Below the pieces are notes generated by a model. It saw only the letters and a program-made list of their open reading frames with translations. It made no database searches and was not told the DNA's origin. The translations under genes were made by a program, and so were the position numbers. This document shows, one piece after another, positions 26,177 through 47,516 of a DNA stretch of 64,000 nucleotides. The stretch spans positions 1,601 to 65,600 of the forward strand of contig CAYWPA010000001.1 of assembly GCA_964459835.1 (NCBI GenBank), in the 5' to 3' direction. This DNA comes from an uncultured Methanosarcinales archaeon (GTDB taxonomy: Archaea; Nanobdellota; Nanobdellia; Woesearchaeales; UBA12501). Each line of letters starts with the position of its first letter. Position 1 is the first letter of the stretch.

Positions 26177-26386
26177 TCATTCCTTTTCTATGTGTATGCA
26201 GTTTACAGGGCAGACTTCCTCTGCCTTCTTGTTTCTCTCTATATCCCTTGCCTCAAGCTTTATCTTCTTAGGCTTTGCTTTGTAGCCGTCCTCTAATTCA
26301 ACCATCTCCCAGTTTTCAGGGCATTCGCTGGTGCAGGCGCTGCAGCCGATGCATATGTCTATCTCATGCCTTATTTTTAAGCTCAT
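26177..26386 (-). CDS. 4Fe-4S ferredoxin
   Basis: CIGCSACTSECP and a second Cys cluster. Confidence 0.75.
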   Translation of the reverse strand: MSLKIRHEIDICIGCSACTSECPENWEMVELEDGYKAKPKKIKLEARDIERNKKAEEVCPVNCIHIEKE

Positions 26387-26430
26387 TTTGAATACCTAAT
26401 AAAAAGAATATATAAATGTTTAGAAGCAAA

Positions 26431-26619
26431 TCATAAGGAGTCAGAATCTACTTCTTCTTCCTCATCGTCGACGTCTTCAAAGTCCTTAAAGTCCTCGGCG
26501 TCATCCTTCTCTTTCAGGTGGAAAACTCCCCCGCACTCGCATTCCTCTCCTTCAAAAATGCCGTCGTGCTCTGTTTTTTCAGCATTGCAGCCGTCGCATA
26601 TATACACTCTTTCTTCCAA
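26431..26619 (-). CDS. small zinc-ribbon protein with acidic tail
   Basis: CDGC...CECGG, then a D/E-rich C-terminus. Confidence 0.45.
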   Translation of the reverse strand: MEERVYICDGCNAEKTEHDGIFEGEECECGGVFHLKEKDDAEDFKDFEDVDDEEEEVDSDSL

Positions 26620-26697
26620 TTTAGCCCCTCCTATAGGTGTTTGAAAAAGAGGTTTTAAAAAATACTATTTAAATTTAACGCATTTATTGCTATATAT

Positions 26698-26931
26698 CTA
26701 GATCCCCAGGGCTTTCTTCATGGCAGGCCTGTCAAAGCCAACTATCACAGTGCCATTGATCTCTATAACAGGCACGCCCATCTGGCCTGACTTCTTCACC
26801 ATCTCTTCCCTGGCCTTATCATTTTCAGCAACATTGATATCATCGAATTTTATATTGTTGTCTTTAAGAAACTTCTTTGCCTGTATGCAGTAAGGGCATG
26901 TTGGCGTTGAATAGACCTTTACTTTTGCCAT
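26698..26931 (-). CDS. glutaredoxin-like protein
   Basis: YSTPTCPYCIQAKKFL (CPYC) and GVPVIEINGTVIVGF. Confidence 0.8.
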   Translation of the reverse strand: MAKVKVYSTPTCPYCIQAKKFLKDNNIKFDDINVAENDKAREEMVKKSGQMGVPVIEINGTVIVGFDRPAMKKALGI

Positions 26932-26969
26932 AAAAATCCAGTCGCTTATGGGCTATATAAATTTTATGC

Positions 26970-27728
26970 TCAACTTTTTTTGCTTATTCTGTACAGCATG
27001 AAAACAGAAATCAGAAACATTGGGATGCTAAGCACCTGTCCCATTGTCAATGGAAATGTAGAAGGTAAAGTCTGGTACTCTTTGAAGTACTCCACAAAAA
27101 ACCTTAGCAATCCATACAGTGCGCCGAAGCTCCAGAATAAAAATCCTTTTGGAAGGTTTTTTACTGACTTCATATTCCATAAAATTCCGAATATCAATAA
27201 ATTCTTAGCTGCTTCATATAACTGAGAAGGATGCCTAAATCCTTCATATCCTTTAAACTTCACGGCCCATGGAATGCTTGTTACTCTTCCTACAATTTCG
27301 CCGTTGAAAAAATTCCCAACCCTTACAAAAGCAGCGCCTAATGCAATTGGTATTACAGCAATATCTGCAATATCATAAAACTGGATTTTTTTCTTTTTTG
27401 AATACCACCACATTACAAGCACTCCTCCTATTACTGCACCGTGGCTTGCTAATCCTCCTTTCCATACATACAAAATCTGCTCAGGATTTGAAAAATAATA
27501 TCCTGGATTATAGAATAAAACCTCTCCAAGCCTTGCCCCGACTATGAGGCCTATCATCATGAAAAGAAACAGCTCTTCTATATTCTGCCTTTTGATCCCT
27601 CTTTCTTCTGCAAGCTTAATTATGATAAAATAACCTATAAGAAATGCAAGGGCCATCAGAATTCCATAATACCTAATCTGAAAGGGCCCAACCTCTGCCA
27701 AAATCGGGTTTATATTGTGGTAAAACAT
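26970..27728 (-). CDS. lgt: prolipoprotein diacylglyceryl transferase
   Basis: Matches the Lgt PROSITE-type signature RVGNFFNGEIVG and the HPSQLYEA motif; 7 TM. Confidence 0.8.
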   Translation of the reverse strand: MFYHNINPILAEVGPFQIRYYGILMALAFLIGYFIIIKLAEERGIKRQNIEELFLFMMIGLIVGARLGEVLFYNPGYYFSNPEQILYVWKGGLASHGAVIGGVLVMWWYSKKKKIQFYDIADIAVIPIALGAAFVRVGNFFNGEIVGRVTSIPWAVKFKGYEGFRHPSQLYEAAKNLLIFGILWNMKSVKNLPKGFLFWSFGALYGLLRFFVEYFKEYQTLPSTFPLTMGQVLSIPMFLISVFMLYRISKKS

Positions 27729-27756
27729 GGTTAAAAAAATTAAAATTTATTGCAGC

Positions 27757-28437
27757 TTACTGCAGCTCAGCGTCAATTATCTGCTTGAATGCAGAGAACG
27801 GCTGCGCTCCTACAATCTTCTTTCCGTTTACAAAGAAAGAAGGAGTTCCTGAAACTCCTGCAGCCTGCCCATCAGTCAAGTCTTTCTGCACTTCTGACGC
27901 ATACTTTCCTGAGTCTAAGCAGCTGTTGAATTTTGCTGTATCAAGGCCAAGCTCATCTGCGTACTTTTTCAGATCGATTACGCCAATGGCTGCCTGGTTG
28001 TCAAAAATCTTGTTATGCATCTCCCAGAACTTTCCTTGGTCATCTGCGCATTCAGCTGCCTCTGCCGCTTTCTGCGCATATGGATGTATGCTTGTTAAAG
28101 GAAAGTCCCTGTAAACTAATTTTGCTTTTCCTGTTTTAATGTATTCTTTTTCCAATTGTGGAAGCGTATCAGAATAGAACCTTGCACAGAAAGGACACTG
28201 GAAATCTGAAAACTCTATTATCTCTACAGGCGCGTTCTTGTTTCCCTTAACAGGATCATCATCTGCGCTAACTTCTACTGTTGGCGCTGCTGAAGGCTGT
28301 GTAGGAGAAGGGCTTGGTGCTGCTCCTGTTTCTCCCCTGAAGAATAAAGCCCATATCAAAACTATTGCAAGAATTACTGTAGCTATTTTCCAAAAATCCT
28401 CTTTTTTCAATGAAAACAAAACATCGCTTTTTGCCAT
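27757..28437 (-). CDS. membrane-anchored DsbA-like thiol:disulfide oxidoreductase
   Basis: IEFSDFQCPFCARFY thioredoxin-fold CxxC; N-terminal TM plus Pro/Ser-rich linker. Confidence 0.8.
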   Translation of the reverse strand: MAKSDVLFSLKKEDFWKIATVILAIVLIWALFFRGETGAAPSPSPTQPSAAPTVEVSADDDPVKGNKNAPVEIIEFSDFQCPFCARFYSDTLPQLEKEYIKTGKAKLVYRDFPLTSIHPYAQKAAEAAECADDQGKFWEMHNKIFDNQAAIGVIDLKKYADELGLDTAKFNSCLDSGKYASEVQKDLTDGQAAGVSGTPSFFVNGKKIVGAQPFSAFKQIIDAELQ

Positions 28438-28497
28438 CTATACACCCTCCATAAGGAATGATAAGCGGAAATACCGGTTGTTTATAAAAGTATTGTT

Positions 28498-28689
28498 TTA
28501 AGCCTTATGGCCGACAGGGCACGGCCTGTCTCCGTAGTCGCAGAAAACGCAGCAGCCTTGCTTTGCAGATATTGTTTTTCCACAGCCTTCACATTTGTAA
28601 AAAGTAATGCATTTATCACTAGGAATCTCCATTTTCTGTTTGTGCCTGCATTTAGGGCATGTTAGAGTTCCTGTTGCAGATAGTTTCAT
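28498..28689 (-). CDS. small Cys-rich (multi-CxxC) metal-binding protein
   Basis: CPKC...CEGCG...GCCVFCDYG...CP; 63 aa. Confidence 0.45.
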   Translation of the reverse strand: MKLSATGTLTCPKCRHKQKMEIPSDKCITFYKCEGCGKTISAKQGCCVFCDYGDRPCPVGHKA

Positions 28690-28775: not shown

Positions 28776-29168
28776 ATGAAAAAAATTTTGCTTCTTATCG
28801 CAGTGCTTCTATTGATGACAGGTTGTGCTAAAAGCTATGACTATGGAAAGCCCGCAGAGCCGCAGAAAACATATGTTGTTGAAGAAGAGGCGCAAGCTGA
28901 TGCAGAACAATCAGAGCCTGAAACATCAACAGTTAGTGTAACGATACAGAACTTTGCCTTCAGCCCTGCAACAATAACTGTGAAGAAAGGCACAGCTGTT
29001 ACTTGGACAAATATGGATTCAGCTCCGCATACAGCAACAGGAGATGGCTTTGACACAGGAGTTTTAAAGAAAGGCGAGAGTGGCAGCATTACTTTCAATG
29101 AAGCGGGAACATTTGACTATACCTGCACAATTCATCCAAGCATAAAGGGGAAGGTAATAGTGCAATGA
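28776..29168 (+). CDS. cupredoxin-fold lipoprotein
   Basis: Signal with LLLMTGC lipobox-like Cys; C-terminal YTCTIHPSIKGKVIV cupredoxin copper-site-like motif; GGTGG SD-like sequence upstream. Confidence 0.65.
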   Translation: MKKILLLIAVLLLMTGCAKSYDYGKPAEPQKTYVVEEEAQADAEQSEPETSTVSVTIQNFAFSPATITVKKGTAVTWTNMDSAPHTATGDGFDTGVLKKGESGSITFNEAGTFDYTCTIHPSIKGKVIVQ

Positions 29169-29539
29169 ACAAAAAACTTGCAAATGTTTTTGTTTTTTCA
29201 ATTTTGTTTGCTTTAGCTGTTAATGCAGTAGATATAATATACCATCTTTCCACAGGTGTGCTTGCTCCGCTTTACTATATCATAAGAAAATTCCTTGCGA
29301 TGTTTGTTGCTGCTTTTGCAGTGACATGGCTATATGGCAAAAACATTAAATCAGGCGTTGCTGTTTCAGTCCTTGGTCCAGTATTGTTTTTTATTTACTA
29401 CCGCTTTTTTTATCTGATTAAAGCAGGTGATTTCTTTGCCTTTGGACCTGAAGTGGGAGACAGCGTATCAATGCTATTTGCCCACATGATAATGGCTTTT
29501 GCTGTCTACTGGATGTTTTTGAAGGTTGTTAAAGAATAA
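29165..29539 (+). CDS. membrane protein, unknown function
   Basis: ATGA overlap with the cupredoxin gene; 4 TM. Confidence 0.45.
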   Translation: MNKKLANVFVFSILFALAVNAVDIIYHLSTGVLAPLYYIIRKFLAMFVAAFAVTWLYGKNIKSGVAVSVLGPVLFFIYYRFFYLIKAGDFFAFGPEVGDSVSMLFAHMIMAFAVYWMFLKVVKE

Positions 29540-30187
29540 CTATCCGGTTGCATTAGAAACATTGCTTTGATTGATTGTAGCGTTCATCTCAATATAAAAC
29601 TCTTTAAGATCATCAGGAGACTTATATTCAAGGAATGTTTCATACTCTCCCACTCTGATTTTAGTAAACTCTCCTCTCCTCCTATGGCCTGGAACGTGTG
29701 AATAAATGTTATATTCCCCTTCTTTTGCGTTAAAAACATAGTCTGTTTTACCGTTTGCAGAGACATTAAGCCTTTCAGTTACCCTGTCAAAGCTTCTCAT
29801 AGGGCCTTCAACTACAACCTCATTAGCTTCGCTTACATTATTTTCAATGATTAGCTTAACAGGCCCTGGAAGAATGTTTATCTCTGCAGGAGAAAACTTA
29901 TCAACATTTATTACAATTTTAATAAACTGCTCTATTTCCTCATCGCTTATCCTTTCAAGAACTTCTGACTCGTTTATTTCTGTCTGGTTTGTCTCATTTG
30001 ATTCTTCAACTTCTGTTTCGTTTACTTCTTCTGCTGTTTCATTAATACCATCTTGGGCTGTTTCATTCTCAATCTCCCCTATCTCTGTTTCAAGATCAAG
30101 AATATCCTGCTCTAAATCACTGTTGGATTTGCAGCCTAGAGTAATAAAAACAATAAATACAACAATAATCAAAACCAGCTTTTTCAT
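29540..30187 (-). CDS. acidic lipoprotein with degenerate cupredoxin-like domain
   Basis: Signal ending ITLGC; NET/NQT/NES sequon-rich acidic repeat; C-terminal YSHVPGH resembles a cupredoxin CxxPGH site with Cys replaced by Ser. Confidence 0.45.
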   Translation of the reverse strand: MKKLVLIIVVFIVFITLGCKSNSDLEQDILDLETEIGEIENETAQDGINETAEEVNETEVEESNETNQTEINESEVLERISDEEIEQFIKIVINVDKFSPAEINILPGPVKLIIENNVSEANEVVVEGPMRSFDRVTERLNVSANGKTDYVFNAKEGEYNIYSHVPGHRRRGEFTKIRVGEYETFLEYKSPDDLKEFYIEMNATINQSNVSNATG

Positions 30188-30222: not shown

Positions 30223-32652
30223 CTACAGTTCTTTTACAGCCTTTTCTATTTCCTCTGTTGCCCGGATATATGAACCATGCTTTACAATAATTGGCTTCCC
30301 TATATTTACTTTTGTCCTTGCAAATTTAGGGAATCTCTTCCATCTCGGAAGAACTTTTATTACATTCTCCACCTTTATCGGAACAACAGGAATGCCCATC
30401 TCTACAGCCAGTATTCCTATGCCCTGCTTAAAGCTTTGAATCTCCCCTGTCATTGTTCTTGCTCCCTCAGGATAAATCAAAATATTCCATTCTTTTCCTA
30501 CTAGCCTTCCTGTATATTTTAGGCTTCTCCTGAAGCCTTTTTGCTGTGGAAACGGGTAAATATTATAGAATATGGTTGCAAGGTGGTATAAAAGCCATTT
30601 CCCAAAGCCTTTGTATTTCAGGTTGTGCCTGAAGAAAAACTCCTGCCATGCTGCAACTGCTGTTTTAAGGGAAAACCTCAGCGGAAGCTTCATCAGTATT
30701 ATTGGCGTGTCAAAATGGCTTTGGTGATTTGCTGCAAAGATAACGGGGCTTTTCAATCCTTTTAAGTTCTCCCTTCCATAAATCCTTGGCCAGCTGAAAA
30801 ATCTTGCAATTTGGTTTGTTAAAGGCTGAAGTACAAAACGGAAAAATCTTGCTGCTAGGGAAAGCGCCCAATGCTTGAATATTGGCTTTTCCTCGATTAT
30901 TATTTTTTGTTTTATTATTTGTTCAAGCTCTTTTATTTTTGTGCTAGGTATCATTCTTTCTTCGTCTATCTCAATATTGAACTCCTGTTCCAGCAAAGAA
31001 ATCAATTCAACAATGTCAATTGAAGACAAGCCAAGATCTTGTAAAGTAGCAGCATCTGTTATTTTTTTATTGGTTAATTGTGAAATTATGCTATAAATCT
31101 TGTTCTTTTTCTTTACAATAACAGCTTCTTTTTTTGTTTTCAATGCTTCCTTAACAGCAAACTTTTTTATTTTTAGAGTTGTTGTTCTTGGAAAATCCTC
31201 ATATGGCCAGACAGAGTAATCCTTTATTTTCTGTGAAGAGTCAAGCTTTTCGTTTGCTTTGTCTACAATGTTTTTTGCCTTTGCTCCTTCTTTCAGCAGC
31301 AAAACAGCATATACCTCTTCTCCTTTCTTTCCATCCATTCCGATAACACAGCTATCTGCTACACCTTCTATTTTGTTCAGGATATTTTCAATATCTTCTG
31401 CATACACATTGATGCCTGCTGCTGTTACTATAACATCTTTTTTCCTTCCTTTCAGATAAAGAAATCCTTCATTATCAAATCTTCCTAAATCGCCTGTTTT
31501 AAGCCATCCATCCTCAAAAAGCTCTTTTGTCTTTGTCGGGTTCTTGTAGTAGCCTTGGGTTATATTATCGCCTTTTGCAACCACCTCTCCGTTCTTTATG
31601 CTAACTTCTACACCGGTAATGGCCCTTCCAACTGAGCCAATCTTGTGCTTTTTTGTCGTGTTTGCAGTTAAGATTGGAGAAGTTTCTGTTAAACCATATC
31701 CCTGAATAACAAGTATCCCTATGCTGTTGTAGAATCTTTCAAGCTCTTCATTCAGTGTTGCTCCGCCTGAAATAAAATAATTAATATTGTTTCCAAGCTT
31801 TTTATGGATTTTTCTGAACAATAATTTTCTTAGTGAAAACGGAATATATTTAGCAGCTTTCAATGCTATGAAAAACTGATTTTCTTTGTTTTTCTTTTTT
31901 ACTTCCTGCAGAATGCCTGAATATATTAATTCCAAAATTCTTGGAACAAATGCTGCATTTGTTATTTTTTCATCTTCAAAGGCCTCAAAGAGAGAACTTG
32001 GCTTTAGTGTCTTTACATAGACAATGCTTGCTTTTTGCGAAAGTGGAACAAAAAATCCTGTCATCTGCTCAAAGACATGGCTCAATGGAAGAACAGAAAG
32101 AAACTTGAATTTTGATTTTACTTTTTCAACTGAATTTATAGCATTTAAGTTTGAAATAAAATTCTTGTGTGTTAAAATAACTCCTTTTGGATTTCCTGTT
32201 GTTCCGGAAGTATATATTATCTCAGCAATGTCGTTTTCATTAACATCAGTAGAGTATGTCCCTTCTTCTAATGAATCAAGCAATTCCTCAACAAAAACTG
32301 TTTTTTGCTTTAATTTTGGCTTGTGCCTTGTCTGAAACACCAATTTTGCCTGAACAATATTCTGTATTTTCCTTGCAAACACAATATCTGACCTTAAATC
32401 CACTGGCACGACTATTACTCCTGCTAAAAACGCCCCCAAAAGCATGATAGCATATTCTATGCCGTTATAGCTCCAGACTATGATCATGTCTCCTTTATTT
32501 ACTTTGTTTTTCTTAAGAAAATAGGCGAATTTAGAAGAAAGCTTGTATAGCTCTTTGTAAGTATAGGCAAATTTTCTATACTCTTTTCTATCAATAACAG
32601 CAACTTTGTTTGATTCCTTAAATCCTTCAATTAAATCAGCTAAGGTTTTCAC
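30223..32652 (-). CDS. fatty-acyl-AMP ligase / carrier-protein / 1-acyl-sn-glycerol-3-phosphate acyltransferase (PlsC) tripartite fusion
   Basis: AMP-binding motifs IIYTSGTTGNPKGV, GYGLTET, GDLGRFDNEGFLYLKGRKKD; PP-binding LQDLGLSSIDIVEL; PlsC motifs NHQSHFD (HX4D) and YPEGAR. Confidence 0.8.
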   Translation of the reverse strand: MKTLADLIEGFKESNKVAVIDRKEYRKFAYTYKELYKLSSKFAYFLKKNKVNKGDMIIVWSYNGIEYAIMLLGAFLAGVIVVPVDLRSDIVFARKIQNIVQAKLVFQTRHKPKLKQKTVFVEELLDSLEEGTYSTDVNENDIAEIIYTSGTTGNPKGVILTHKNFISNLNAINSVEKVKSKFKFLSVLPLSHVFEQMTGFFVPLSQKASIVYVKTLKPSSLFEAFEDEKITNAAFVPRILELIYSGILQEVKKKNKENQFFIALKAAKYIPFSLRKLLFRKIHKKLGNNINYFISGGATLNEELERFYNSIGILVIQGYGLTETSPILTANTTKKHKIGSVGRAITGVEVSIKNGEVVAKGDNITQGYYKNPTKTKELFEDGWLKTGDLGRFDNEGFLYLKGRKKDVIVTAAGINVYAEDIENILNKIEGVADSCVIGMDGKKGEEVYAVLLLKEGAKAKNIVDKANEKLDSSQKIKDYSVWPYEDFPRTTTLKIKKFAVKEALKTKKEAVIVKKKNKIYSIISQLTNKKITDAATLQDLGLSSIDIVELISLLEQEFNIEIDEERMIPSTKIKELEQIIKQKIIIEEKPIFKHWALSLAARFFRFVLQPLTNQIARFFSWPRIYGRENLKGLKSPVIFAANHQSHFDTPIILMKLPLRFSLKTAVAAWQEFFFRHNLKYKGFGKWLLYHLATIFYNIYPFPQQKGFRRSLKYTGRLVGKEWNILIYPEGARTMTGEIQSFKQGIGILAVEMGIPVVPIKVENVIKVLPRWKRFPKFARTKVNIGKPIIVKHGSYIRATEEIEKAVKEL

Positions 32653-32987
32653 TTTAACAGCAGCACGACTTGAGCAATTGCATAGTCCTTATCATGGCTT
32701 ATGCTTACATCAACGTCTTCTATGATTTCTTTTAGCTCGTTTGCCAGCAACAAAGCTGGCTTTCCTGTTTTTTGTTTTTTAAGCTCAACTTTCATCCATT
32801 CCGGCTTTTTTCCTAGAGCTTTAAAAAAAGCTTCCTTTGCAGCAAATATTCCAGCAATACTTTCAGCTTTGTAATACTTCATTTCTGATTTATGCAGCAC
32901 TTTTTTCATAAATTCTTTGTTCAGCATAAGTTTTCCTACTTTTGGGATATATACAATATCCACACCTGTTCTTATTTTTGATTTCAT
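32649..32987 (-). CDS. acpS: holo-[acyl-carrier-protein] synthase (4'-phosphopantetheinyl transferase)
   Basis: GVDIVYIP ... SISHDKDYAIAQV AcpS motifs; 4-nt overlap with the fusion gene. Confidence 0.75.
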   Translation of the reverse strand: MKSKIRTGVDIVYIPKVGKLMLNKEFMKKVLHKSEMKYYKAESIAGIFAAKEAFFKALGKKPEWMKVELKKQKTGKPALLLANELKEIIEDVDVSISHDKDYAIAQVVLLLK

Positions 32988-33418
32988 TTTACATAAAACT
33001 CCAGAGGCCTGCCGTAAAGGTCGTACATAGCTATGTTGCCTTTTTCAAACGGCCTGCACACTATCATATGCACCAAGCCATGCTTATTAAATGTGCTTTT
33101 GTCAGCAACAGAAGGAAGGTTGCTGTAGCTTGGATGGCTGTGCACAGTTCCAATATCATTAGATATTAAAGGGAGGTTTAGCTTGAAGGATGCAGACTCC
33201 TCTGTAGTCTCGTAAATCTGATATGTTAAGCTTACTATTAGCAATTCCCTTTCATCTATCTTCCCGTTCAGAATGGCAAAAAATTCCTTAGGGTATGCCT
33301 GCCTTGCAAGGTGGCAGATTTCATCCATTGCTGAACTCTTAACCACAATTTTATCAAACTCAAACTTGTCCAGGCCAAATAATTTAGCCATCTTGCTCTT
33401 TATTATTTTAAGAACCAT
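32984..33418 (-). CDS. JAB/MPN (JAMM) metalloprotease domain protein
   Basis: HSHPSYSNLPSVAD JAMM motif (HxHx7Sx2D). Confidence 0.7.
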   Translation of the reverse strand: MVLKIIKSKMAKLFGLDKFEFDKIVVKSSAMDEICHLARQAYPKEFFAILNGKIDERELLIVSLTYQIYETTEESASFKLNLPLISNDIGTVHSHPSYSNLPSVADKSTFNKHGLVHMIVCRPFEKGNIAMYDLYGRPLEFYVK

Positions 33419-33431
33419 TTTACTTCTTTGC

Positions 33432-34052
33432 TTATTTCTTTGCTTCTACAAGCATCACAGACCAAAACCAGTTTGCTTTCCACCAGCTTATCCTTACATC
33501 CTTAAACTCATGAACCCTGAACAGCTTCCTCATTTCATTTGTTGAGTATGCCTTTTGATGTCCTTTCTTAAATCTCCATAGTTTTTCAAAAAACCAAACC
33601 CATCTTCCGTCTGTGCAGAAATCCGTCAATAGCAAAGTTCCGCCTTTTTTTAGAACCCTATGCATCTCTTCAAGAAATAAATTAACACTTGCCATGTGAT
33701 GTATAACATTTGTAGATACTATTTTTGAAAACTCATTGTCTTTAAATTCAATATTATGGGCATGCCCGTAAAGTATTTCAACATTCTTAAAGCCTTCCAG
33801 CTTTTTCTTTGCAATCCTTATCATCTTTTCAGAAACATCTATCCCTACAAGCCTCTTGTACTTGTTTTTCTCTGCAATCAGCCTAAGCAATTCCCCTGTT
33901 CCGCAGCCGACATCAAGAACAGCATCGTTTCGTGTCAGCTTCATGGATTCAAGTATTTTGTCATAAGAAGACCTGAGAAAAATCTGAAACTTTGTGTCGT
34001 ACTTCTCAGCACGCTTGTCGTACTCGCTCTGCACAGCCCTTGTAATATCCAT
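33432..34052 (-). CDS. class I SAM-dependent methyltransferase
   Basis: VLDVGCGTGELL motif I. Confidence 0.7.
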   Translation of the reverse strand: MDITRAVQSEYDKRAEKYDTKFQIFLRSSYDKILESMKLTRNDAVLDVGCGTGELLRLIAEKNKYKRLVGIDVSEKMIRIAKKKLEGFKNVEILYGHAHNIEFKDNEFSKIVSTNVIHHMASVNLFLEEMHRVLKKGGTLLLTDFCTDGRWVWFFEKLWRFKKGHQKAYSTNEMRKLFRVHEFKDVRISWWKANWFWSVMLVEAKK

Positions 34053-34081
34053 TTTACCTCTTTTTTAGCCCTACAGCCTGT

Positions 34082-35268: not shown

Positions 35269-35439
35269 CCACTTTTCTAGCTGTTCTTTTGCTTTCTTTT
35301 TAGTCTTGAAAAACTTTGTTTCTGAAACTGACAAATAAGGGATCCTTCTTGTTACCTTAAATCTTTTTTCTGCTTGGCTTTTAAGCTCAATTAAAGAAAC
35401 TTCCCATTTCTTTGCTGGATGCTTTTTTGCCTTTTTCAT
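35260..35439 (-). CDS. small basic protein (59 aa)
   Basis: Not in the ORF track; MKKAKKHPAKKWEVSLIELKSQAEKRFKVTRR...; its ATG overlaps the TGA of the upstream DsbA-like gene (ATGA coupling). Confidence 0.4.
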   Translation of the reverse strand: MKKAKKHPAKKWEVSLIELKSQAEKRFKVTRRIPYLSVSETKFFKTKKKAKEQLEKWLK

Positions 35440-40856: not shown

Positions 40857-41066
40857 TTATTTTTTACTTACTACCTTATATTCGCCAGCTGATTCAATTT
40901 CTTTTTTTAATCTCCCTAAATCAGCATTGTCATGCTCTATGGTTACTTTACCTGTCTTGAAATCAACAACACAATTCCTGACACCGGCAACATCCCTGCA
41001 TACATCTTCAATTACTGCTTTGCAGGATTCGCAGTGCATGCCTTTTATATACATTGTTGTTTTCAT
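40857..41066 (-). CDS. copZ: copper chaperone (HMA domain)
   Basis: [16 protein letters not shown]; 69 aa. Confidence 0.85.
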
Positions 41067-41107: not shown

Positions 41108-42541
41108 TCAGACAACATTGAACACGCCTGGGCCTGCCATCCCCATTGAGCAGCTGAATCTTATCGCTCCTGTTTTTTCTGGGGTAAAGGTAATGGTCTT
41201 TACCTTATCCCTGGGAAGAACTTCTGTGATGCCAAGCTGCGGAACAGAGATCACCTGTGCACAGCCCTGCGCTGCCCTTCCGTCAATCCTCCATTCTACA
41301 GGAACGCCTTCAGCAACAGTAAACTGCGATGGGTAATAATCACGCCCCATGACTTTCATTTCTATTATTTGTTTGCCGTCAGCTTCTCCAGCTGTTTTTA
41401 TGTAATCTGTGCCTGCGCCCTGGATTGTATTCTGGACTGTATTTTTTGAAAAGAAACCGGATTCAAGCGGATTTCCTGCCAAGGCAAAGCCATTGCTTAT
41501 GCTGAATATGCCTAGTAAAATAACTGCAACAGCAGATGTTTTTACAATATACCTGTGTGCTGCTCCTTTTGCAAAGCTTGAAACAGCGCCTAAAGAAACA
41601 AGCGCTGGAAGTGTTCCTAAGGAAAAGAAAAGCATTGTCAATGCTCCTGTCATAAAGCTTCCTGTGCTCAGCACATAAAGCTGCAATGCCTGTGTAAAGC
41701 CGCATGGAAGGAAAAATGTAGATGCCCCAAACAAGAAAGGGGCAGCTTTGCGGTTTTTGTCTGAAGAGGTATTGTAAATCTTATGCACTATGAACTTTGG
41801 CATCTTTGGCTGGAAGTATCTTAGCCATGGGAATATATTGAGCATCTGCAGGCCAAGCAGGACCATGACTATGCTTACAGCAACAGTCAGATAGCCTGTT
41901 GTACTTGCTGACAAAGTAAAGGCAGAGCCTAGCAACCCAACAAAACCGCCTAGAATTGTGTATGAAGCGATTCTTCCTATGTTGAAATAAATATGCGGCT
42001 TAAATTTCTGGTGTCCGCTTAGATTATGATGCTGCTGGTTGTACTTTGTTGCAACCGCAAGCAGCAGGCCTCCTGTAACTGCAAGGCATGTGGAGAATGC
42101 AGCAATGATCCCTATAATAAAAACAAGGCCATAGGTCATATTTTCAGAAACGCCTATATTTGGAAGTATATCAAACTGCTTGAAGATAAGGTATAATCCT
42201 AAAACAATAAGGAAAGCTGCTCCTATTTCCACATGGTCTTTTTTAAATTCATAGTGTTTGCTTTTGGCGGCGCTTTTCTTTGAAGGCTCAGCGCTTTCAT
42301 GCCTTGCCCCTTCCTTAAGCGAGGAAACTGTATAGCCATGCCCATGTATAGATTCATTTAATTCGTTTATGCTCGGTTCTCTTGCCTTGTAATACACTAT
42401 CGCCCTGCCGCTTGCATGGCTTACCCTAGCTTTCTTTACTCCCTCAATATTACTGAATTTTCTCTCGATAAGCACTTCGCAGCTCGCGCAGTGCATTCCG
42501 TTAACCCTTAGTTTTAGTTTTTTCAGGTTTTTGTTGCCCAT
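41108..42541 (-). CDS. HMA domain / Cys-containing permease (DsbD_2/MerT-like) / cupredoxin-like domain fusion protein
   Basis: N-terminal VNGMHCASCEVLIE; central 6-8 TM with Cys in helices (AAFSTCLAVTGG, FFLPCGF); C-terminal about 100 aa YYPSQFTV...FSCSMGMAG cupredoxin-like with a Cys/Met site. Confidence 0.55.
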   Translation of the reverse strand: MGNKNLKKLKLRVNGMHCASCEVLIERKFSNIEGVKKARVSHASGRAIVYYKAREPSINELNESIHGHGYTVSSLKEGARHESAEPSKKSAAKSKHYEFKKDHVEIGAAFLIVLGLYLIFKQFDILPNIGVSENMTYGLVFIIGIIAAFSTCLAVTGGLLLAVATKYNQQHHNLSGHQKFKPHIYFNIGRIASYTILGGFVGLLGSAFTLSASTTGYLTVAVSIVMVLLGLQMLNIFPWLRYFQPKMPKFIVHKIYNTSSDKNRKAAPFLFGASTFFLPCGFTQALQLYVLSTGSFMTGALTMLFFSLGTLPALVSLGAVSSFAKGAAHRYIVKTSAVAVILLGIFSISNGFALAGNPLESGFFSKNTVQNTIQGAGTDYIKTAGEADGKQIIEMKVMGRDYYPSQFTVAEGVPVEWRIDGRAAQGCAQVISVPQLGITEVLPRDKVKTITFTPEKTGAIRFSCSMGMAGPGVFNVV

Positions 42542-42599: not shown

Positions 42600-43157
42600 T
42601 TAGTTGAGAATAACTATATTAGTCATCCCCCTTCTCTGCCTTTCTATCAGCTTCTTTCCTTCCATCCTGTCAAGAATTCTTGTAAGCTGGACCTTTGTGA
42701 GGCCTGTTTCCTTCATTATATCGCTCTGGTACATAGAGCCGTCCTTCTGCACAAGCAGCTCATAAACCTTTTTTTCCCTTTCATCAAACTTTGAAATCTT
42801 TGAAATGTCGGCTTTTTCAGCCTTGGATATTGATTCTGTTGTTCCTGCTTCTTTCTTTTTCTTTGCACTTATTTCCCTTATTTCTGCTATTTCTTTTTTT
42901 ATAGGCTTAAAAATCATAAATATGCCGCTGCCAAAAATAAGCAAGGCAATCACAAATGCTGCAAGAACATACCACGATGCAATGTTTTCGTGTGCAGGGC
43001 ACTGCTCCATTGTTAGAGTGGGGGATTCTGCCACAACCTTGCATAGAAAAGCCCCTTCCTTGTCAAGATTGAGCTTGACAAAAATAAGAAGGATGATAAG
43101 TATAAAAGAAGATGCAACTAGTATTTTACCAATACTTTTCTGGTCAATGTTAGCCAT
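42600..43157 (-). CDS. membrane-tethered winged-helix transcriptional regulator
   Basis: 2 TM flanking a loop with a Cys pair (CKVV...EQC); charged linker; C-terminal MarR/TrmB-like wHTH (SDIMKETGLTKVQLTRILDRMEGKKLIER). Confidence 0.55.
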   Translation of the reverse strand: MANIDQKSIGKILVASSFILIILLIFVKLNLDKEGAFLCKVVAESPTLTMEQCPAHENIASWYVLAAFVIALLIFGSGIFMIFKPIKKEIAEIREISAKKKKEAGTTESISKAEKADISKISKFDEREKKVYELLVQKDGSMYQSDIMKETGLTKVQLTRILDRMEGKKLIERQRRGMTNIVILN

Positions 43158-43240
43158 ATTTTCCTTGTTTTTTGTTTGTATTTAAATGTTGCTAAAAATT
43201 AAGGCAAATCTTTAAATAAGCCACGACCTTCCTTCAAAAA

Positions 43241-43735
43241 ATGAATAACAAAAAAATAGGGGCAGTTTTTCTTGTAATCAGCATAGTCATTGCAATGATT
43301 ATAATCAAGCTAATGGGTGGTTTAAATACAAAGGCAAGTGAACTTGGCTGTTTTGATAAGCAGGGATGCCTGCAGATTGAATCTTCATTAAGCCTGGCCC
43401 ATATCTCTTTTGGCGTTATAGGATTTATCTTTGCCCTTGGCTTTTATCTTATTTTCTTTGCAAAGGGAGAGGAGGAAATCCTAAGGAGGTTAGAACAAGA
43501 CAAGCAAAAGCTGCTTGAAGATGAAAAATTTAATTTAATATTAAAAGGTCTTGATAATTTTGAAAAAAAAGCAATGAAGGCAATAAAAGAGCAGGATGGA
43601 ATAACTCAAAATACATTGCGAATAAGAACAGACATGTCAAAGGCAAAGCTTAGCTATGTTCTTAAGGATCTTGAAGATAAAGGATTAATAAAGAGAGTTA
43701 AAAAAGGAAAGACGCTTGCAGTGTTCTTAAAATAG
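43241..43735 (+). CDS. membrane-tethered winged-helix transcriptional regulator (paralog)
   Basis: 2 TM flanking a CFDKQGC loop; coiled-coil linker; C-terminal wHTH (ITQNTLRIRTDMSKAKLSYVLKDLEDKGLIKR); divergent to 42600..43157. Confidence 0.55.
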   Translation: MNNKKIGAVFLVISIVIAMIIIKLMGGLNTKASELGCFDKQGCLQIESSLSLAHISFGVIGFIFALGFYLIFFAKGEEEILRRLEQDKQKLLEDEKFNLILKGLDNFEKKAMKAIKEQDGITQNTLRIRTDMSKAKLSYVLKDLEDKGLIKRVKKGKTLAVFLK

Positions 43736-43868
43736 GCTGAGATTGCTTTATGAACGTTCTTAAAGCAGAATTCGGCATATATAGCCATTTTTACCAGTAC
43801 TGTTCATAGGATTGATTATTTATAATACTTCTATCTAAAATTCTTTAAAATCACATTGGAGGGATAAT

Positions 43869-44597
43869 ATGAAAAAAGAAAGTGAAAAAGAGGAAGCAAT
43901 CACATTCAAAAAATCAACATTATGGAAAGCTGCCGTAGTTATTTTGGCAATAATAGTAGTATGGCAGTTATTTTTTAAGACAGGAACAGGAGTAGGGGCA
44001 GCGGTGCCATCACCGGCTGCTCCGCCTCCCCCAACAGCTGCTGTAAGCGCTGCAGAACTGGAGGATGACGATGCCTTTTTGGGCAATGAAAATGCGCCAC
44101 TAACAATAGTGGAGTTTTCAGACTTCCAGTGCCCATTCTGCAGGAAGTTCTGGAAAGATACTTTGCCTAGCATAAAGAAAGATTATATCGACACAGGAAA
44201 GGTTAAGTTTGTCTACAGGGATTTCCCATTGACAAGCATACATCCGGGAGCTCAGCCGGCTGCAGAGGCAAGTGAATGTGCCAGAGAGCAGGATAGGTTC
44301 TGGCAGTACCATGACAAGATCTTTGAAGAGCAGGATAAAAGAGGACAGGGCACAGTTCAATTCGGAGTTGCTGACTTAAAACAATGGGCAGCTGACCTTG
44401 GACTGGATACAGGAAAGTTCAACAAATGCCTGGATTCAGGAAAATATTCTGCAGAAGTAAATAAAGACCTGATAGATGCACAAAGAGCAGGGGGACAGGG
44501 AACTCCTCATTTTGTCATTGGAAACACGCCGGTAAGCGGCGCAATGCCTTATTCATCTTTCAAGCCAGTGATTGACGCAGAGCTGGCAAGAAGCTAA
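43869..44597 (+). CDS. membrane-anchored DsbA-like thiol:disulfide oxidoreductase
   Basis: IVEFSDFQCPFCRKFW; GGAGG SD upstream. Confidence 0.8.
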   Translation: MKKESEKEEAITFKKSTLWKAAVVILAIIVVWQLFFKTGTGVGAAVPSPAAPPPPTAAVSAAELEDDDAFLGNENAPLTIVEFSDFQCPFCRKFWKDTLPSIKKDYIDTGKVKFVYRDFPLTSIHPGAQPAAEASECAREQDRFWQYHDKIFEEQDKRGQGTVQFGVADLKQWAADLGLDTGKFNKCLDSGKYSAEVNKDLIDAQRAGGQGTPHFVIGNTPVSGAMPYSSFKPVIDAELARS

Positions 44598-44624: not shown

Positions 44625-45173
44625 ATGGAAGTAAAGAAAAGGATTAAAGATATACTTATTGCACTAAAAAACGTATATCAAAAACCGCTTTACATAGCTT
44701 TAGCTAGCTTTACAACTTTGCTTATATTAACTTTTAACATTAGCATAATCAATTACAGAGTTTATCTTAATTTCCCAAGCTTTGAAATTATCAGTAAAAT
44801 ATTCATTGGAACATTTTTGGCATTACCCGTTCATTCAATAATGCTTTTATTAATAGCATCGATTTTAAGCGGCATATTCGTTTCATTGCTGGTGTACCAA
44901 CTTAAAACTATAAAATCCATGAACAAGTCTTATGCAACAGGCGCAGGCGGCATTGTTTTGGGAACAATTGCTCCTGCCTGCGCTTCATGCGGCATTGGCT
45001 TGCTTGCTTTGCTTGGCTATACAGGATTAATTGCTGTTTTGCCTTTCAAAGGCCTGGAAGTAGGCTATCTTGGCATAGTTTTATTAATAATAGCAATATC
45101 TTCGATCTCAGCAAAGATATCTAATAAAACATGCAATATAAGCAATGCGAAACTCATTAAATATAGAAAATAA
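44625..45173 (+). CDS. CxxC-containing small permease-like membrane protein (MerT/DsbD_2-like?)
   Basis: ATGAGGIVLGTIAPACASCGIGLLALLG intramembrane CxxC; paralog of 45712..46188. Confidence 0.45.
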   Translation: MEVKKRIKDILIALKNVYQKPLYIALASFTTLLILTFNISIINYRVYLNFPSFEIISKIFIGTFLALPVHSIMLLLIASILSGIFVSLLVYQLKTIKSMNKSYATGAGGIVLGTIAPACASCGIGLLALLGYTGLIAVLPFKGLEVGYLGIVLLIIAISSISAKISNKTCNISNAKLIKYRK

Positions 45174-45213: not shown

Positions 45214-45579
45214 ATGAAAAACACAATACAGACAACTTTGATGATAGACATTATATTTATCATTTTAGCTATTGCAGGATGTACAAGTCAGACAATAAGC
45301 AGCAAAGGAACAGGGGAATTAAAAGAATTTAATGCAGTTATAAGTGAATATAGTTACAATCCTTCTTCTATAACTGTTAATTTTGGCGATACAGTGAAGG
45401 TAAATATAAAGAACACTGATGGGGTAACTCACGGCATATCCTTGCCGGTTTTTGGCGTACAGGAGTTTGTAAAGCCAGGAGAAACAAAAACAATACAGTT
45501 TGTGGCAAACCAGCGTGGTCAGCCAGAAACATTTTGCAGTACAGACCATGGAGAGAAATTATTTATTGAGGTGATATAA
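45214..45579 (+). CDS. cupredoxin-fold lipoprotein
   Basis: Signal with ILAIAGC lipobox; HGISLP and FCSTDHGEKLFIEV cupredoxin-like ligands. Confidence 0.55.
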   Translation: MKNTIQTTLMIDIIFIILAIAGCTSQTISSKGTGELKEFNAVISEYSYNPSSITVNFGDTVKVNIKNTDGVTHGISLPVFGVQEFVKPGETKTIQFVANQRGQPETFCSTDHGEKLFIEVI

Positions 45580-45711: not shown

Positions 45712-46188
45712 ATGAGAAAAAAACAAAAGAAAAATCCGGCATCATGGCCTTATGTAGCTATTGGCTCAGTTGCCGCAATAATAGCTTTCTTTTTATTTGG
45801 AATACCCACTGCAGTAATACCAAACTCTTATTTTTTCAGAATGTCGCCTGTAACAATTTTTGACTATATTTTTCTTCCGATAAATTCTGTTTTGTTTGGG
45901 GCTTTTATTGCTCTTTTATTTTACCAAGGAAATTACAAAAGGCTGATAAAACTAAAAAATACAAAAACAGAAAGCGCAGCAACTGGAGCTGCATTTGTCA
46001 ATGTTTTAGCATTGGGCTGCCCAATATGCAATGTAGTGCTTGTCTCATTATTCAGCACAACAGCTTTGATGACTTATCTAGAGCCTGCAAGGCCTGCACT
46101 TTCAGTATTAACTGCAGGAATTCTCGGAACAGCAATCTATTTCAAGGCAAAGAGCATAAAGGAATGCAAAGTTTGCAAAAGAAAATAA
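45712..46188 (+). CDS. CxxC-containing small permease-like membrane protein (paralog)
   Basis: ATGAAFVNVLALGCPICNVVLVSLF; C-terminal KECKVCKRK. Confidence 0.45.
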   Translation: MRKKQKKNPASWPYVAIGSVAAIIAFFLFGIPTAVIPNSYFFRMSPVTIFDYIFLPINSVLFGAFIALLFYQGNYKRLIKLKNTKTESAATGAAFVNVLALGCPICNVVLVSLFSTTALMTYLEPARPALSVLTAGILGTAIYFKAKSIKECKVCKRK

Positions 46189-46196
46189 TAAAAGTT

Positions 46197-46376
46197 TTAT
46201 GATTTATTTTTTAATTCATCTTCAGCAACTTCAGGAAAGAATAATCCTGTAAATCCACATTTATTGCATTTATATTGATTGAAAAAAGAACCTCTGCCAT
46301 AAGATTGCAAGGATAAGTCCGGAATTACATCAGTGCTCTTGCACTTAGGACAAAATCTAATTAATTTTTTTGACAT
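46197..46376 (-). CDS. small zinc-ribbon protein (59 aa)
   Basis: Not in the ORF track; MSKKLIRFCPKCKST...YKCNKCGFTG. Confidence 0.4.
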   Translation of the reverse strand: MSKKLIRFCPKCKSTDVIPDLSLQSYGRGSFFNQYKCNKCGFTGLFFPEVAEDELKNKS

Positions 46377-46481
46377 ATTTTCCTTGTTTTTTATTGGTAT
46401 TTAAATCTTGCTATCCAATGCCGTAAAGCTTGAAAACATTTATATAATTATACAACAAGAGATCATAAATTAAGGTGAAAA

Positions 46482-46727
46482 ATGAAAAACAATCATATTA
46501 AACTGGCTTTATTTGCTTCAGTATTGTTGTTATTCTCTGTTTTTGTTTCAGCGCAGGGAGGATGTCCTACGATATATGGTGGATACAGCATGATGGGTTA
46601 TGGGGCTGGATGGTGGGTATTTTACCACTTAATAGGTCTTGTATTGCTGATTGCATTAATATGGGTTATCGTATGGGTGATTTTAAAATATTTTAACCCA
46701 CAGAAAAAATCAAAAAGGAAACAATAA
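46482..46727 (+). CDS. small secreted/membrane protein
   Basis: Signal peptide; GGCPTIYGGYSMMGYGAGWW; C-terminal TM; GGTGA SD upstream. Confidence 0.4.
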   Translation: MKNNHIKLALFASVLLLFSVFVSAQGGCPTIYGGYSMMGYGAGWWVFYHLIGLVLLIALIWVIVWVILKYFNPQKKSKRKQ

Positions 46728-46744
46728 AACAAGGAGGTGAAAAA

Positions 46745-47038
46745 ATGGAAGGACAGGCAAAACTAAATACATGCGCATTGGCAGGTGCATTTACAATTAT
46801 CTCAGGCGTTGATTCGTTTCTTCATGCATTGCTTCAGTCAATGGGCAAGGAGTTTTTGTTCTACAATGCAGGAACATGGAATATTGTGTCGTCTGTATAT
46901 CCCTGGATGTCAGCAACAACTAGCGGAGCATTTGTTGGGCTTATAGCTGGTGCAATTTTAGGCTTTGTAGTTGGCTTTATAACGGCATGGCTGTACAACT
47001 TCGTGCTTGCAAGGCACAGCTGCAAGATGTGCAAATAA
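46745..47038 (+). CDS. small membrane protein with C-terminal CxxC
   Basis: GGAGGTGA SD upstream; ends HSCKMCK. Confidence 0.4.
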   Translation: MEGQAKLNTCALAGAFTIISGVDSFLHALLQSMGKEFLFYNAGTWNIVSSVYPWMSATTSGAFVGLIAGAILGFVVGFITAWLYNFVLARHSCKMCK

Positions 47039-47105
47039 ATTTTTGTTTTATTTTTAATTCAATAAAACAACAAAATATTTAAACATAAAAGCCAGAATTT
47101 AGCTT

Positions 47106-47516
47106 ATGAGGCCTTTAGCGCATCTTAATTTAGGTGTTTTCACAGGCTTGATAGCTCAGTATTATTTTGGCTGGAAGATAGGGATAGTAGTTTTCTTGTT
47201 TCAATTAATTCCTCTTATTGATATTTATGTTGGAATGTTTATAAGGGTTGAGCCTTTGCATAATATTTTTGCTGTTGTTATTTTGTCTGGATTAGTTGCA
47301 TTGTATGATTTTTTTGCAGCGTGGATAGCATTTGTAAGCTATGTCCTGCATATAGGAGTTGATCTTCTAGTTGACGAAGGCATAGAATTGTTTTATCCGT
47401 TTACAAAAAAGAAATTCAAATACCCTGTCTGGCACAGCGAGGATATTGTGATTGCAATAAGCGCCTTGGGAATAGCTGTTTTTGTAGTTTTGTTCTATCT
47501 GCAGGGAAAAATATAG
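47106..47516 (+). CDS. DUF457 (YdjM-like) membrane-bound metal-dependent hydrolase family protein
   Basis: MRPLAHLNLGVFTGL N-terminus and HIGVDLLVDEG motif. Confidence 0.5.
   Translation: MRPLAHLNLGVFTGLIAQYYFGWKIGIVVFLFQLIPLIDIYVGMFIRVEPLHNIFAVVILSGLVALYDFFAAWIAFVSYVLHIGVDLLVDEGIELFYPFTKKKFKYPVWHSEDIVIAISALGIAVFVVLFYLQGKI

Follow-up and report, generated by a model that had tools for sequence, protein, structure and literature searches.

Copper-handling and thiol-redox genes on an archaeal contig, with a family of CxxC membrane proteins remotely similar to MerT

We analyzed a 64-kb stretch of DNA (64,000 nucleotides of contig CAYWPA010000001.1, which is 222 kb, or 221,996 bp, in full; hereafter the window, to which all absences reported for it refer) and, within it, a region of about 21 kb (26177-47516; coordinates are window positions, followed by the strand) that combines copper-handling genes with genes for thiol-disulfide chemistry predicted to be extracytoplasmic. 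The focus is on two paralogous membrane proteins with CxxC motifs, here called TMa and TMb, which are encoded together with a DsbA-like oxidoreductase and a cupredoxin in a module of four genes, DsbA-TMa-cupredoxin-TMb. Non-overlapping open reading frames (ORFs) from 24 to 50 kb were selected and scanned against Pfam and NCBIfam, and PDB searches were added as a check on gene identities. The window is archaeal, because it carries an archaeal RNase P RNA (775-1103, 144 bits) and a gene for ABCE1/RLI; the nearest relatives suggest a DPANN/Woesearchaeota affiliation.

The original prediction, made from the letters of the sequence, had described an unusual concentration of copper and envelope redox genes in this region, and hidden Markov model (HMM) and structure searches show that this concentration is real and not an artefact of motif reading. 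The four membrane-anchored DsbA-like CxxC paralogs are present where they had been placed (Thioredoxin_4, E-values of 1e-28 to 1e-40); the membrane thioredoxin (matched by 3KP8/3KP9), glutaredoxin, ferredoxin and small Cys-rich proteins are present as well; CopA, CopZ, CorA, Lgt and two membrane-tethered winged helix-turn-helix (wHTH) regulators all have Pfam matches; and the proposed fusion of HMA, permease and cupredoxin is an HMA-DsbD_2-CupA-type cupredoxin protein at 41108-42541. Two items had to be revised: ZupT, said to lie close by, is a ZIP transporter gene at 14377-15144, 11 kb outside the region, and the supposed split permease consists of two separate paralogous genes, TMa and TMb, not of halves of one. 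All three proteins listed as cupredoxin-fold lipoproteins have lipobox-like motifs, with one of them (Cup2, see below) a weak match that lacks a Cys ligand. Most components of the cluster are ordinary members of known families; new or under-appreciated are a MerT-related CxxC family without a name, linked to DsbA in archaea and to copper-resistance genes generally, and, as described below, a stand-alone VKOR-type thioredoxin domain and a full-length Lgt on an archaeal contig.

TMa, TMb and their family

The module is headed by DsbA4 (43869-44597, +; Thioredoxin_4, E = 2e-35). TMa (44625-45173, +) is a membrane protein of 182 amino acids (aa) with a CASC motif embedded in a transmembrane (TM) segment and one C-terminal Cys; TMb (45712-46188, +) is a 158-aa protein with four TM segments, CPIC in TM3 and a C-terminal CKVC, and the gene for the cupredoxin Cup3 is placed between the two. 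Neither TMa nor TMb has a Pfam or NCBIfam assignment. The two proteins are paralogs (BLASTP E = 1e-6; 99.6% probability and E = 1.5e-23 in profile-profile comparison). An exhaustive HMM search with the TMb family, counted as clusters at 50% identity, yielded 2,428 clusters at E ≤ 1e-3 and 874 at E ≤ 1e-10, from both archaea and bacteria. When one genome per species was scanned, 110 relatives were found, with hosts among Woesearchaeota, Nanohaloarchaea, Halobacteria, Archaeoglobi, Methanosarcinales, many Proteobacteria, Chloroflexota and Actinomycetes. A family copy was present on 88 plasmids, many of the plasmid homologs being haloarchaeal or actinobacterial; among those listed with an annotation, 25 of 25 are called "hypothetical protein".

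Members of the family share an invariant C-P-x-C-N motif (CP[IV]CN) in a TM helix, a conserved IPTxxIPN/RMxP outer loop and a YxEPxRP turn. The AlphaFold2 model of TMb (pLDDT 78) consists of four TM helices, and the positive-inside distribution of charges leads us to infer that the N-terminus, the loop between TM2 and TM3 and the C-terminus are cytoplasmic, with the CxxC in the outer half of TM3. In 118 of the 123 members with a locatable motif, at least one further Cys lies on the predicted cytoplasmic side, at varying positions and in varying number. The model matched no solved structure, those of DsbB, VKOR and CcdA included, and a Pfam scan of 50 members of the TMb family, long ones among them, revealed no fusion to an HMA or thioredoxin (Trx) domain.

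The only detectable homology of the TMb family is to MerT. In hhalign comparisons, the family aligned with Tn501 MerT at a probability of 89%, with the CxxC on the CC pair of MerT and YxEPxRP on LEPYRP, and a second alignment with MerT reached 76%; the Tn501 query is 99% identical to annotated merT genes. The Pfam MerT profile (PF02411) gave a weak match in 7 of 50 relatives (best E = 3.8e-5) and none in TMa or TMb of the window, and TMb scored 19.8 bits against NCBIfam MerTP, for which the cut-off is 180. These alignments suggest that the TMb family is remotely related to MerT. MerF was considered as a further relative and dropped (PDB profile matches at E of about 1; 2% probability in hhalign against a MerF sequence).

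As in MerT of the mer operons, the proposed arrangement is a hairpin of two TM helices, the first with a Cys pair in its outer half, then an (L/Y)xEPxRP turn, additional Cys on the side of the cytoplasm and an adjacent gene for an extracytoplasmic metal-binding protein, which in mer operons is MerP. Unlike MerT, however, which has three TM helices and a vicinal CC, TMb has four helices and a CxxC; there are two paralogs, presumably paired; the partner is a cupredoxin and/or DsbA rather than MerP; no MerA was found among the window genes scanned; the context is that of copper; and the scores fall under the family cut-offs. No description of a MerT-like/DsbA module was found in the literature.

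Genomic neighborhoods of the family

Neighborhoods were examined in 25 archaeal and 62 bacterial loci, which were fetched and whose ORFs were compared with the proteins of the window. DsbA is encoded within 3 kb of TMb in 12 of the 25 archaeal loci and in 5 of the 62 bacterial ones, and CopA within 10 kb in 6 and 14 loci, respectively. TMa was found within 2.5 kb of TMb in 10 archaeal loci and in none of the bacterial ones. In addition, every ORF within 2.5 kb of TMb in the 87 loci was clustered de novo and the clusters were labelled with Pfam. The commonest neighbor family was DsbA (18 loci, 14 of them archaeal), followed by multicopper oxidases (11), CopA (10), a ferric-reductase-like TM protein (7), CusF, a PEMT/ICMT-like protein and a pyridine-nucleotide disulfide oxidoreductase (6 each), and MsrA and DUF305 (5 each).

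The order of the window module, with a wHTH gene on the minus strand diverging from DsbA-TMa-cupredoxin-TMb, is identical in a locus of Woesearchaeota (L015), where CorA is adjacent as well. In a locus of Methanosarcinales (L010), the arrangement is wHTH, DsbA-Cup-TMa, then Cup-TMb and then CopA, so that a wHTH gene diverges from DsbA there too; parts of the module are shuffled in this locus and on other archaeal contigs (L011, L016). Compact operons were found in five loci, namely L015, L010, a locus of Peribacteria (L077) in which HMA-DsbD_2-Cup, DsbA, TMb, CopZ and CopA are contiguous, L002 (DsbA-Lgt, then TMb-CopA) and L089 (Cup-TMb and an ArsR-type regulator). A second woesearchaeotal locus (L016) has Grx (glutaredoxin), CopA, Lgt, TMb, HMA-DsbD_2 and CopA within 20 kb. 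On haloarchaeal megaplasmids, the pair is accompanied by a DsbA-like protein, multicopper oxidases, a four-helix copper-binding protein, thioredoxins and ZIP, and an Azospirillum plasmid carries DsbD, DsbA and TMb in a row.

As in the window, a cupredoxin gene lies immediately upstream of TMb in L001, L010, L015 and L089, and the encoded TMb-adjacent cupredoxin always has a copper site that contains Cys: CuA-like in L001 and L010, CupA-like (C...CxMxM) in L015 and nitrosocyanin-like in the window and L089. A further CuA-like cupredoxin is encoded about 4.5 kb from TMb, on the opposite strand, in L007. The lipobox cupredoxins of L010, L001 and L007 carry a CuA-like binuclear-site signature, H...CxxxCGxGHxxM, with no cytochrome oxidase nearby.

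The remaining genes of the region

Two wHTH genes stand back to back at the center of the region. Both wHTH1 (42600-43157, -; DUF7343, MarR) and wHTH2 (43241-43735, +; DUF7343, MarR, HTH_24) encode membrane-tethered regulators that have two TM segments, a winged helix at the C-terminal end and a pair of Cys in the outer loop (CxxxxxC in wHTH2); the pair is kept in L011 and absent in L010 and L015, and is only a hint that these proteins may sense thiols or metals. The 84-bp intergenic region between the two genes (43158-43240) reads as a divergent promoter region; a TATA-like box precedes each of the two wHTH start codons by about 26 nt, a spacing that would give leaderless transcripts. From it, wHTH2-DsbA4-TMa-Cup3-TMb starts on the plus strand, and on the minus strand a co-directional string of 13.6 kb, consisting of wHTH1, the HMA-DsbD_2-Cup fusion, CopZ, CopA, CorA, DsbA3, TrxTM, DsbA2, a 59-aa ORF, a protein with seven TM segments, a methyltransferase, JAB, phosphopantetheinyl transferase (PPTase), Aas and Cup2; the genes of the string overlap or are separated by gaps of at most 60 bp, except that the 59-aa ORF and the seven-TM gene are about 350 bp apart. 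The genes of each strand may be co-regulated. A near-perfect 12+12 palindrome (TGCTTTATGAAC/GTTCTTAAAGCA) at 43744-43767, between the wHTH2 stop and the DsbA4 start, could be an operator or a terminator.

The copper genes follow wHTH1. The 477-aa fusion (41108-42541, -; DsbD_2 with E = 7.6e-38, HMA, Cupredoxin_1) joins an N-terminal HMA domain to a DsbD_2 membrane domain (PF13386; 130.8 bits against a cut-off of 24.9) that has one Cys in each half ('FSTCLAV', 'FLPCGFT') and to a cupredoxin domain, the C-terminal 103 residues of which match the metal-binding domain of Streptococcus pneumoniae CopA (4F2F, E = 3.8e-8) and CupA (2MRY, E = 2.5e-7), with both Cys and the MxM pair of the C...CxMxM site aligned. 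Next come CopZ, an HMA metallochaperone with CESC (40857-41066, -; Pfam HMA, E = 8.3e-14), and CopA (38660-40849, -; E1-E2_ATPase, Hydrolase, HMA), a P1B-1 Cu(I)/Ag(I) ATPase in which we read the motifs 'ACPCSLG' (CPC), 'FFYNTAG' (YN) and 'MVFSSVS' (MxxSS), the phosphorylation site 'DKTGTLT' and the 'CASC' of the N-terminal HMA domain. The CopY-CupA-CopA operon of S. pneumoniae (4F2E/4F2F) similarly places a cupredoxin-fold Cu(I) chaperone domain with C...CxMxM beside a P1B-1 ATPase; in the window, by contrast, this domain shares one protein with an N-terminal HMA domain and a multi-TM DsbD_2 domain, and there is a separate CopZ too. CopZ, CopA and the CupA-type fusion appear to be conventional copper-efflux components. 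CorA (37535-38599, -; Pfam CorA, E = 3.1e-73) is a divalent cation channel.

DsbA3 (36476-37480, -; Thioredoxin_4, E = 8.9e-40 over residues 159-330), which has an extra N-terminal domain with CSSC, TrxTM (36112-36498, -) and DsbA2 (35436-36110, -; E = 2.7e-28) follow CorA in an order that is kept in L088, and DsbA1 (27757-28437, -; E = 1.8e-40) lies further on. The four DsbA paralogs score 99-139 bits against the DsbA family (PF01323, PF13462; cut-off 23.2 bits). An alignment shows the active site CPFC and the G(T/Q)GTP cis-Pro loop in all four; each also has a hydrophobic N-terminal anchor segment, which in DsbA1, DsbA3 and DsbA4 is followed by a linker rich in Pro and Ala. They are in-paralogs with identities of 42-69%: DsbA1, DsbA3 and DsbA4 are 55-69% identical to each other, and DsbA2, the most divergent, is 42-48% identical to the other three. 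The closest PDB relatives of DsbA1 are Corynebacterium diphtheriae MdbA (4PWP) and BdbD, with ScsC proteins ranking lower.

TrxTM, a TM-anchored thioredoxin-like domain with CPHC and no Pfam match, is specifically homologous to the Trx-like domain that Synechococcus VKOR carries as a fusion (3KP8/3KP9, E = 5e-17), its linking TM helix included; it spans only this helix and the Trx-like domain (residues 192-279 of 3KP9), with no VKOR domain. The window resembles the DsbA-VKOR/DsbB systems (actinobacterial MdbA-VKOR; cyanobacterial VKOR-Trx, 3KP9) in its TM-anchored MdbA/BdbD-like DsbAs and its VKOR-type Trx-like domain, and differs from them in that it encodes no VKOR or DsbB domain and that the Trx-like domain is a protein of its own, encoded between two DsbA genes. 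Such a stand-alone VKOR-type Trx domain flanked by DsbAs is new or under-appreciated. Only four homologs of TrxTM were found, all of them stand-alone and about 120 aa long; they were considered as a clue to a VKOR partner and set aside, as they say nothing about one. Just downstream of the DsbA3-TrxTM-DsbA2 string lies the protein with roughly seven TM segments (34082-34906, -; 274 aa), which has WCFC, a CxC motif, inside a TM segment; it was considered as a MauE-like oxidase and dropped, having no match in Pfam or NCBIfam.

The Scs copper-tolerance system (Salmonella, Proteus, Caulobacter; PMC5524982) is similar in that its DsbA-fold CxxC proteins are genetically linked with tolerance of copper and with membrane proteins that contain Cys; ScsC structures (6NEN, 6MHH, 4XVW) are among the PDB relatives of DsbA1, and the DsbD-DsbA-TMb row of the Azospirillum plasmid is a further likeness. 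In contrast to Scs, the DsbAs of the window are closest to MdbA/BdbD, not to ScsC, and no ScsB-type DsbD with periplasmic domains is encoded in the window. We know of no counterpart of TMa or TMb in the described Scs operon.

DsbA1 is directly upstream of Lgt (26970-27728, -), an adjacency that recurs in L002 and L068. Lgt is a bacterial-type prolipoprotein diacylglyceryl transferase (Pfam LGT, PF01790, E = 2.7e-73; 246.7 bits against a cut-off of 24.9, with 239 of 240 profile positions covered), and in its alignment with Escherichia coli Lgt (5AZB, E = 1e-32) the equivalents of Y26, H103, R143, N146, E151, R239 and E243 are all kept. The archaeal RNase P RNA is 26 kb from this gene in the same window, and further Lgt genes are present at 7659-8423 of L016, the contig labelled as a woesearchaeotal metagenome-assembled genome, and at 923-1672 of L002 (taxon unassigned). 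A paper published in Nature Communications in 2025 states that Lgt has no identified homologs in archaea and assigns lipidation to AliA/AliB (PMC12462473); a full-length Lgt with intact catalytic residues in this window contradicts the former statement. As in the bacterial lipoprotein pathway, Lgt with its catalytic residues is accompanied by lipobox proteins; the differences are the archaeal host and the lack of Lsp (signal peptidase II), none being found among the window proteins scanned against Pfam.

Three lipobox-like cupredoxins are encoded within 20 kb of Lgt. Cup1 (28776-29168, +; Cupredoxin_1, Copper-bind) is an amicyanin-like type-1 cupredoxin with the lipobox-like MTGC; it matches amicyanin at about E = 1e-13 and has the His, Cys and His ligands, with Ile in place of the axial Met, and its 'CTIHPSIKG' aligns with 'CTLHPWMKG' of the top PDB match, the cupredoxin domain of a copper nitrite reductase. 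The Cup1 stop codon overlaps the gene for a Cys-less 124-aa protein with four TM segments and no family match (29165-29539, +), which is also called beside Cup1, divergently, in the independent Logan contig L087. Cup2 (29540-30187, -) has a weak cupredoxin fold (Cupredoxin_1, E = 1.4e-6), and its sole Cys is that of the lipobox, so that it has no Cys copper ligand. Cup3 (45214-45579, +; Cupredoxin_1, E = 5e-11), with the canonical lipobox IAGC, is nitrosocyanin-like (1IBY, E = 7.5e-12), its ligand set being nitrosocyanin-like and partial.

Directly upstream of DsbA1-Lgt lies a gene of the GDCCVxC (seleno)protein family (28498-28689, -; 63 aa, nine Cys; NCBIfam NF041374, E = 8.2e-20, above cut-off). 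On the other side of Lgt are the cytoplasmic glutaredoxin (26698-26931, -; CPYC; Pfam Glutaredoxin, E = 1.5e-21), which also occurs near TMb in L001, L004, L016 and L089, a 62-aa protein with four Cys and an acidic tail (26431-26619, -; no Pfam or NCBIfam match), and a small cytoplasmic ferredoxin with a single 4Fe-4S cluster (26177-26386, -; Pfam Fer4_13, E = 1.6e-7). The latter two showed no similarity to the two genes upstream of the glutaredoxin beside TMb in L001. CorA, which adjoins the module in L015 also, and the ferredoxin have no demonstrated link to the other genes of the cluster. An independent 7.7-kb Logan contig repeats the segment Aas-Cup2-Cup1-DsbA1-Lgt-Grx-Fer4-VTT. The DedA/VTT protein is encoded at 24114-26166, together with a GT2 glycosyltransferase and a DUF2064 protein.

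The block at 30223-34906 (-) is related to neither redox nor copper by its Pfam matches: it comprises Aas-like, PPTase, JAB and S-adenosylmethionine-type methyltransferase genes, and the seven-TM gene without a family match. The Aas-like protein is an 809-aa tri-domain enzyme (AMP-binding, acyl carrier protein and PlsC-type acyltransferase domains) beside the ACPS phosphopantetheinyl transferase (30223-32987, -), which amounts to bacterial-type handling of acyl lipids in an archaeon, next to Lgt.

Beyond TMb, small genes with weak Pfam or NCBIfam matches occupy 46197-47516: a small Cys-rich Zn-ribbon protein (46197-46376, -), an 81-aa TM protein, a YdjM-like membrane protein and a DUF5676-like protein with two TM segments that ends in CKMC (46745-47038, +; weakly NCBIfam 'holin_4'); a second two-TM protein of the DUF5676 type is at 57534-57992 (-). 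YdjM and DUF5676 homologs adjoin TMb in L007 and L011, DUF5676 being immediately upstream of TMb in the latter. Elsewhere in the window, genes for an SdhA-like flavoprotein, an enlarged SdhB-like Fe-S protein, an HdrB/CCG-domain protein and a DoxX-like protein with four TM segments lie together at 15151-19364 (-), possibly encoding a quinone-linked complex. A 574-aa beta-helix protein (62133-63857, -), with a weak match to NosD (periplasmic copper-binding), may be another copper-related surface protein. A 506-aa protein with a C-terminal Ser/Thr protein kinase domain (7953-9473, +) and a 317-aa protein with an N-terminal MazE/AbrB-like domain (9460-10413, -) are apparently unrelated to the cluster.

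A possible copper conduit or redox partner

We read the region as a mosaic of conserved copper-handling and envelope thiol-repair modules in which TMa and TMb would form a thiolate-lined conduit for Cu(I), an interpretation to which we assign slightly better than even odds (about 0.55). Together, the modules would manage copper, as Cu(I)/Cu(II) and possibly also silver or mercury, at the membrane of a Woesearchaeota-like archaeon, and would protect or fold surface proteins that contain Cys. In the first, the co-directional string headed by wHTH1 (HMA-DsbD_2-CupA-type cupredoxin, CopZ, CopA, CorA) would buffer cytoplasmic Cu(I) and pump it out. The second, DsbA3, the VKOR-type Trx domain and DsbA2, with DsbA1-Lgt-Grx further on, would supply extracytoplasmic thiol-disulfide oxidoreductases of the MdbA/BdbD type, and Lgt would attach the three lipobox cupredoxins to lipid. 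In the third, which diverges from the second wHTH gene and comprises DsbA4, TMa, the cupredoxin lipoprotein and TMb, Cu(I) would be passed across the membrane by thiolate ligand exchange between the CxxC motifs in the outer TM half and the cytoplasmic-side Cys, with the cupredoxin and/or the CPFC of DsbA as partners outside and CopZ or HMA domains as partners inside. The MerP-MerT-MerA relay of Hg(II) is a parallel for such a Cu(I) relay, and the CcoA-CopZ-CcoI copper circuit of Rhodobacter is a precedent for import followed by export. Copper is also known to damage the thiol-disulfide chemistry of the envelope, as is evident from the dependence on DsbC during copper stress and from the Scs systems.

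Several observations weigh against this interpretation. The similarity to MerT is remote, covers one TM hairpin (about 50 residues) and remains below the Pfam and NCBIfam cut-offs, and TMa alone aligned only weakly with MerT, at a probability of 20% in hhalign. Adjacent cupredoxins have different metal sites from one locus to another, and the pyridine-nucleotide disulfide oxidoreductase beside TMb in six bacterial loci would also fit a role in mercury or redox chemistry. Copper import is counter-intuitive for a resistance locus, so transport in either direction is conceivable.

The conservation of gene order supports modules and not a single unit. The original prediction had proposed one coordinated envelope-biogenesis and copper-homeostasis unit, to be checked by synteny. 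Sub-modules do recur in relatives, with the same order in L015 and parts in L010, L011, L016, L077, L002 and L088, but no relative carries the whole 21-kb set, and the region comprises three or four modules, into which about 5 kb of lipid and other unrelated genes intrude. The label of envelope biogenesis is based mainly on Lgt and the lipobox proteins, and is not supported in the form proposed.

The tight linkage of DsbA and TMa in archaea, where the genes are adjacent, co-oriented and often overlapping, would fit a redox partnership too. TMa and TMb would then be a membrane redox partner of DsbA, either an oxidant like DsbB, VKOR or MauE or a reductant like CcdA/DsbD; the copper proteins would be clients or electron acceptors, and the region would serve mainly oxidative folding or disulfide isomerisation. 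The frequency of DsbA near TMb in archaeal loci and its rank as the commonest neighbor family argue for such a role, as does the finding that all multi-TM ORFs of the 64 kb include no VKOR- or DsbB-like candidate although four DsbAs and a VKOR-type Trx domain are encoded there; one CxxC per paralog, together with the cytoplasmic Cys, could make a relay. Furthermore, new DsbB substitutes are still emerging, such as MauE with its CXC (bioRxiv 10.64898/2026.03.05.709764). The DoxX/MauE/DoxD-like protein of the window (18909-19364; 151 aa, four TM segments; MauE, 36 bits against a cut-off of 27) contains no Cys and hence no CXC, so it cannot be this substitute, and the SdhA/SdhB/CCG and DoxX-like genes leave room for a quinone pool and for a VKOR elsewhere in the genome; a VKOR or DsbB encoded outside the window would account for the gap. 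Against a redox partnership, the AlphaFold2 model is unlike DsbB, VKOR and CcdA structures, the sole detectable sequence relationship is to a metal transporter, no quinone-binding feature was identified, 57 of the 62 bacterial loci have no DsbA nearby, with CopA, multicopper oxidases and CusF there instead, and the Azospirillum locus already has a DsbD-type protein beside DsbA and TMb. Altogether, we regard this alternative as rather unlikely.

The region might also have no coordinated function and consist of bacterial-type genes for envelope and metal functions (Lgt, DsbA, CopA, Aas) that were gained by horizontal transfer and came to lie together by chance, combined with a lineage-specific duplication of DsbA, as could be concluded from the unrelated genes that interrupt it, the separation or reordering of modules in relatives, the many plasmid homologs in haloarchaea and actinobacteria and the high identity of DsbA1, DsbA3 and DsbA4. 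However, the gene combinations recur across phyla and domains well above the approximately 1% expected by our own estimate for a single-copy gene within 10 kb, the order in L015 is identical, GC content is even throughout the window, the flanking genes yielded no integrase or transposase, and two paralogous regulators stand back to back at its center, all of which makes mere accumulation distinctly unlikely. More speculatively, DsbA-TMa-cupredoxin-TMb could be a hitherto unrecognized copper-dependent, quinone-independent module for generating disulfides, in which the paired CxxC proteins would re-oxidize DsbA and hand the electrons to the adjacent cupredoxin or, in haloarchaea, to a multicopper oxidase; this is a long shot, which, if true, would fill the DsbB/VKOR gap in many archaea and explain the DsbA genes among copper genes in these lineages. 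A mer-like step that takes up mercury or a different thiophilic metal (Hg, Ag, Cd) and delivers it to a reductase or to sequestration in the cytoplasm appears very improbable in spite of the exclusive homology to MerT, the GDCCVxC protein and HMA domains and the CxxxxC motif of the oxidoreductase beside TMb in the six bacterial loci, given that no MerA, MerB, MerP or MerR was found among the window genes scanned against Pfam and that copper-specific neighbors (multicopper oxidase, CusF, DUF305, cupredoxins, P1B-1 ATPase) dominate.

With regard to the family, a sizeable and nameless group of CxxC proteins with four TM segments (about 2,400 clusters, many on plasmids) is a recurrent, unstudied part of copper-resistance clusters, and its archaeal members are a standing partner of DsbA. 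To learn whether these proteins transport metal or electrons would add a missing piece to copper trafficking in the one case and to the formation of disulfide bonds in archaea in the other. The presence of bacterial-type Lgt, lipobox proteins, an Aas-like enzyme and PPTase on an archaeal contig raises the question of which lipids are used. The two divergent operons with their membrane-tethered regulators offer a compact set of genes in which to study the handling of copper at the surface of an archaeon with a reduced genome.

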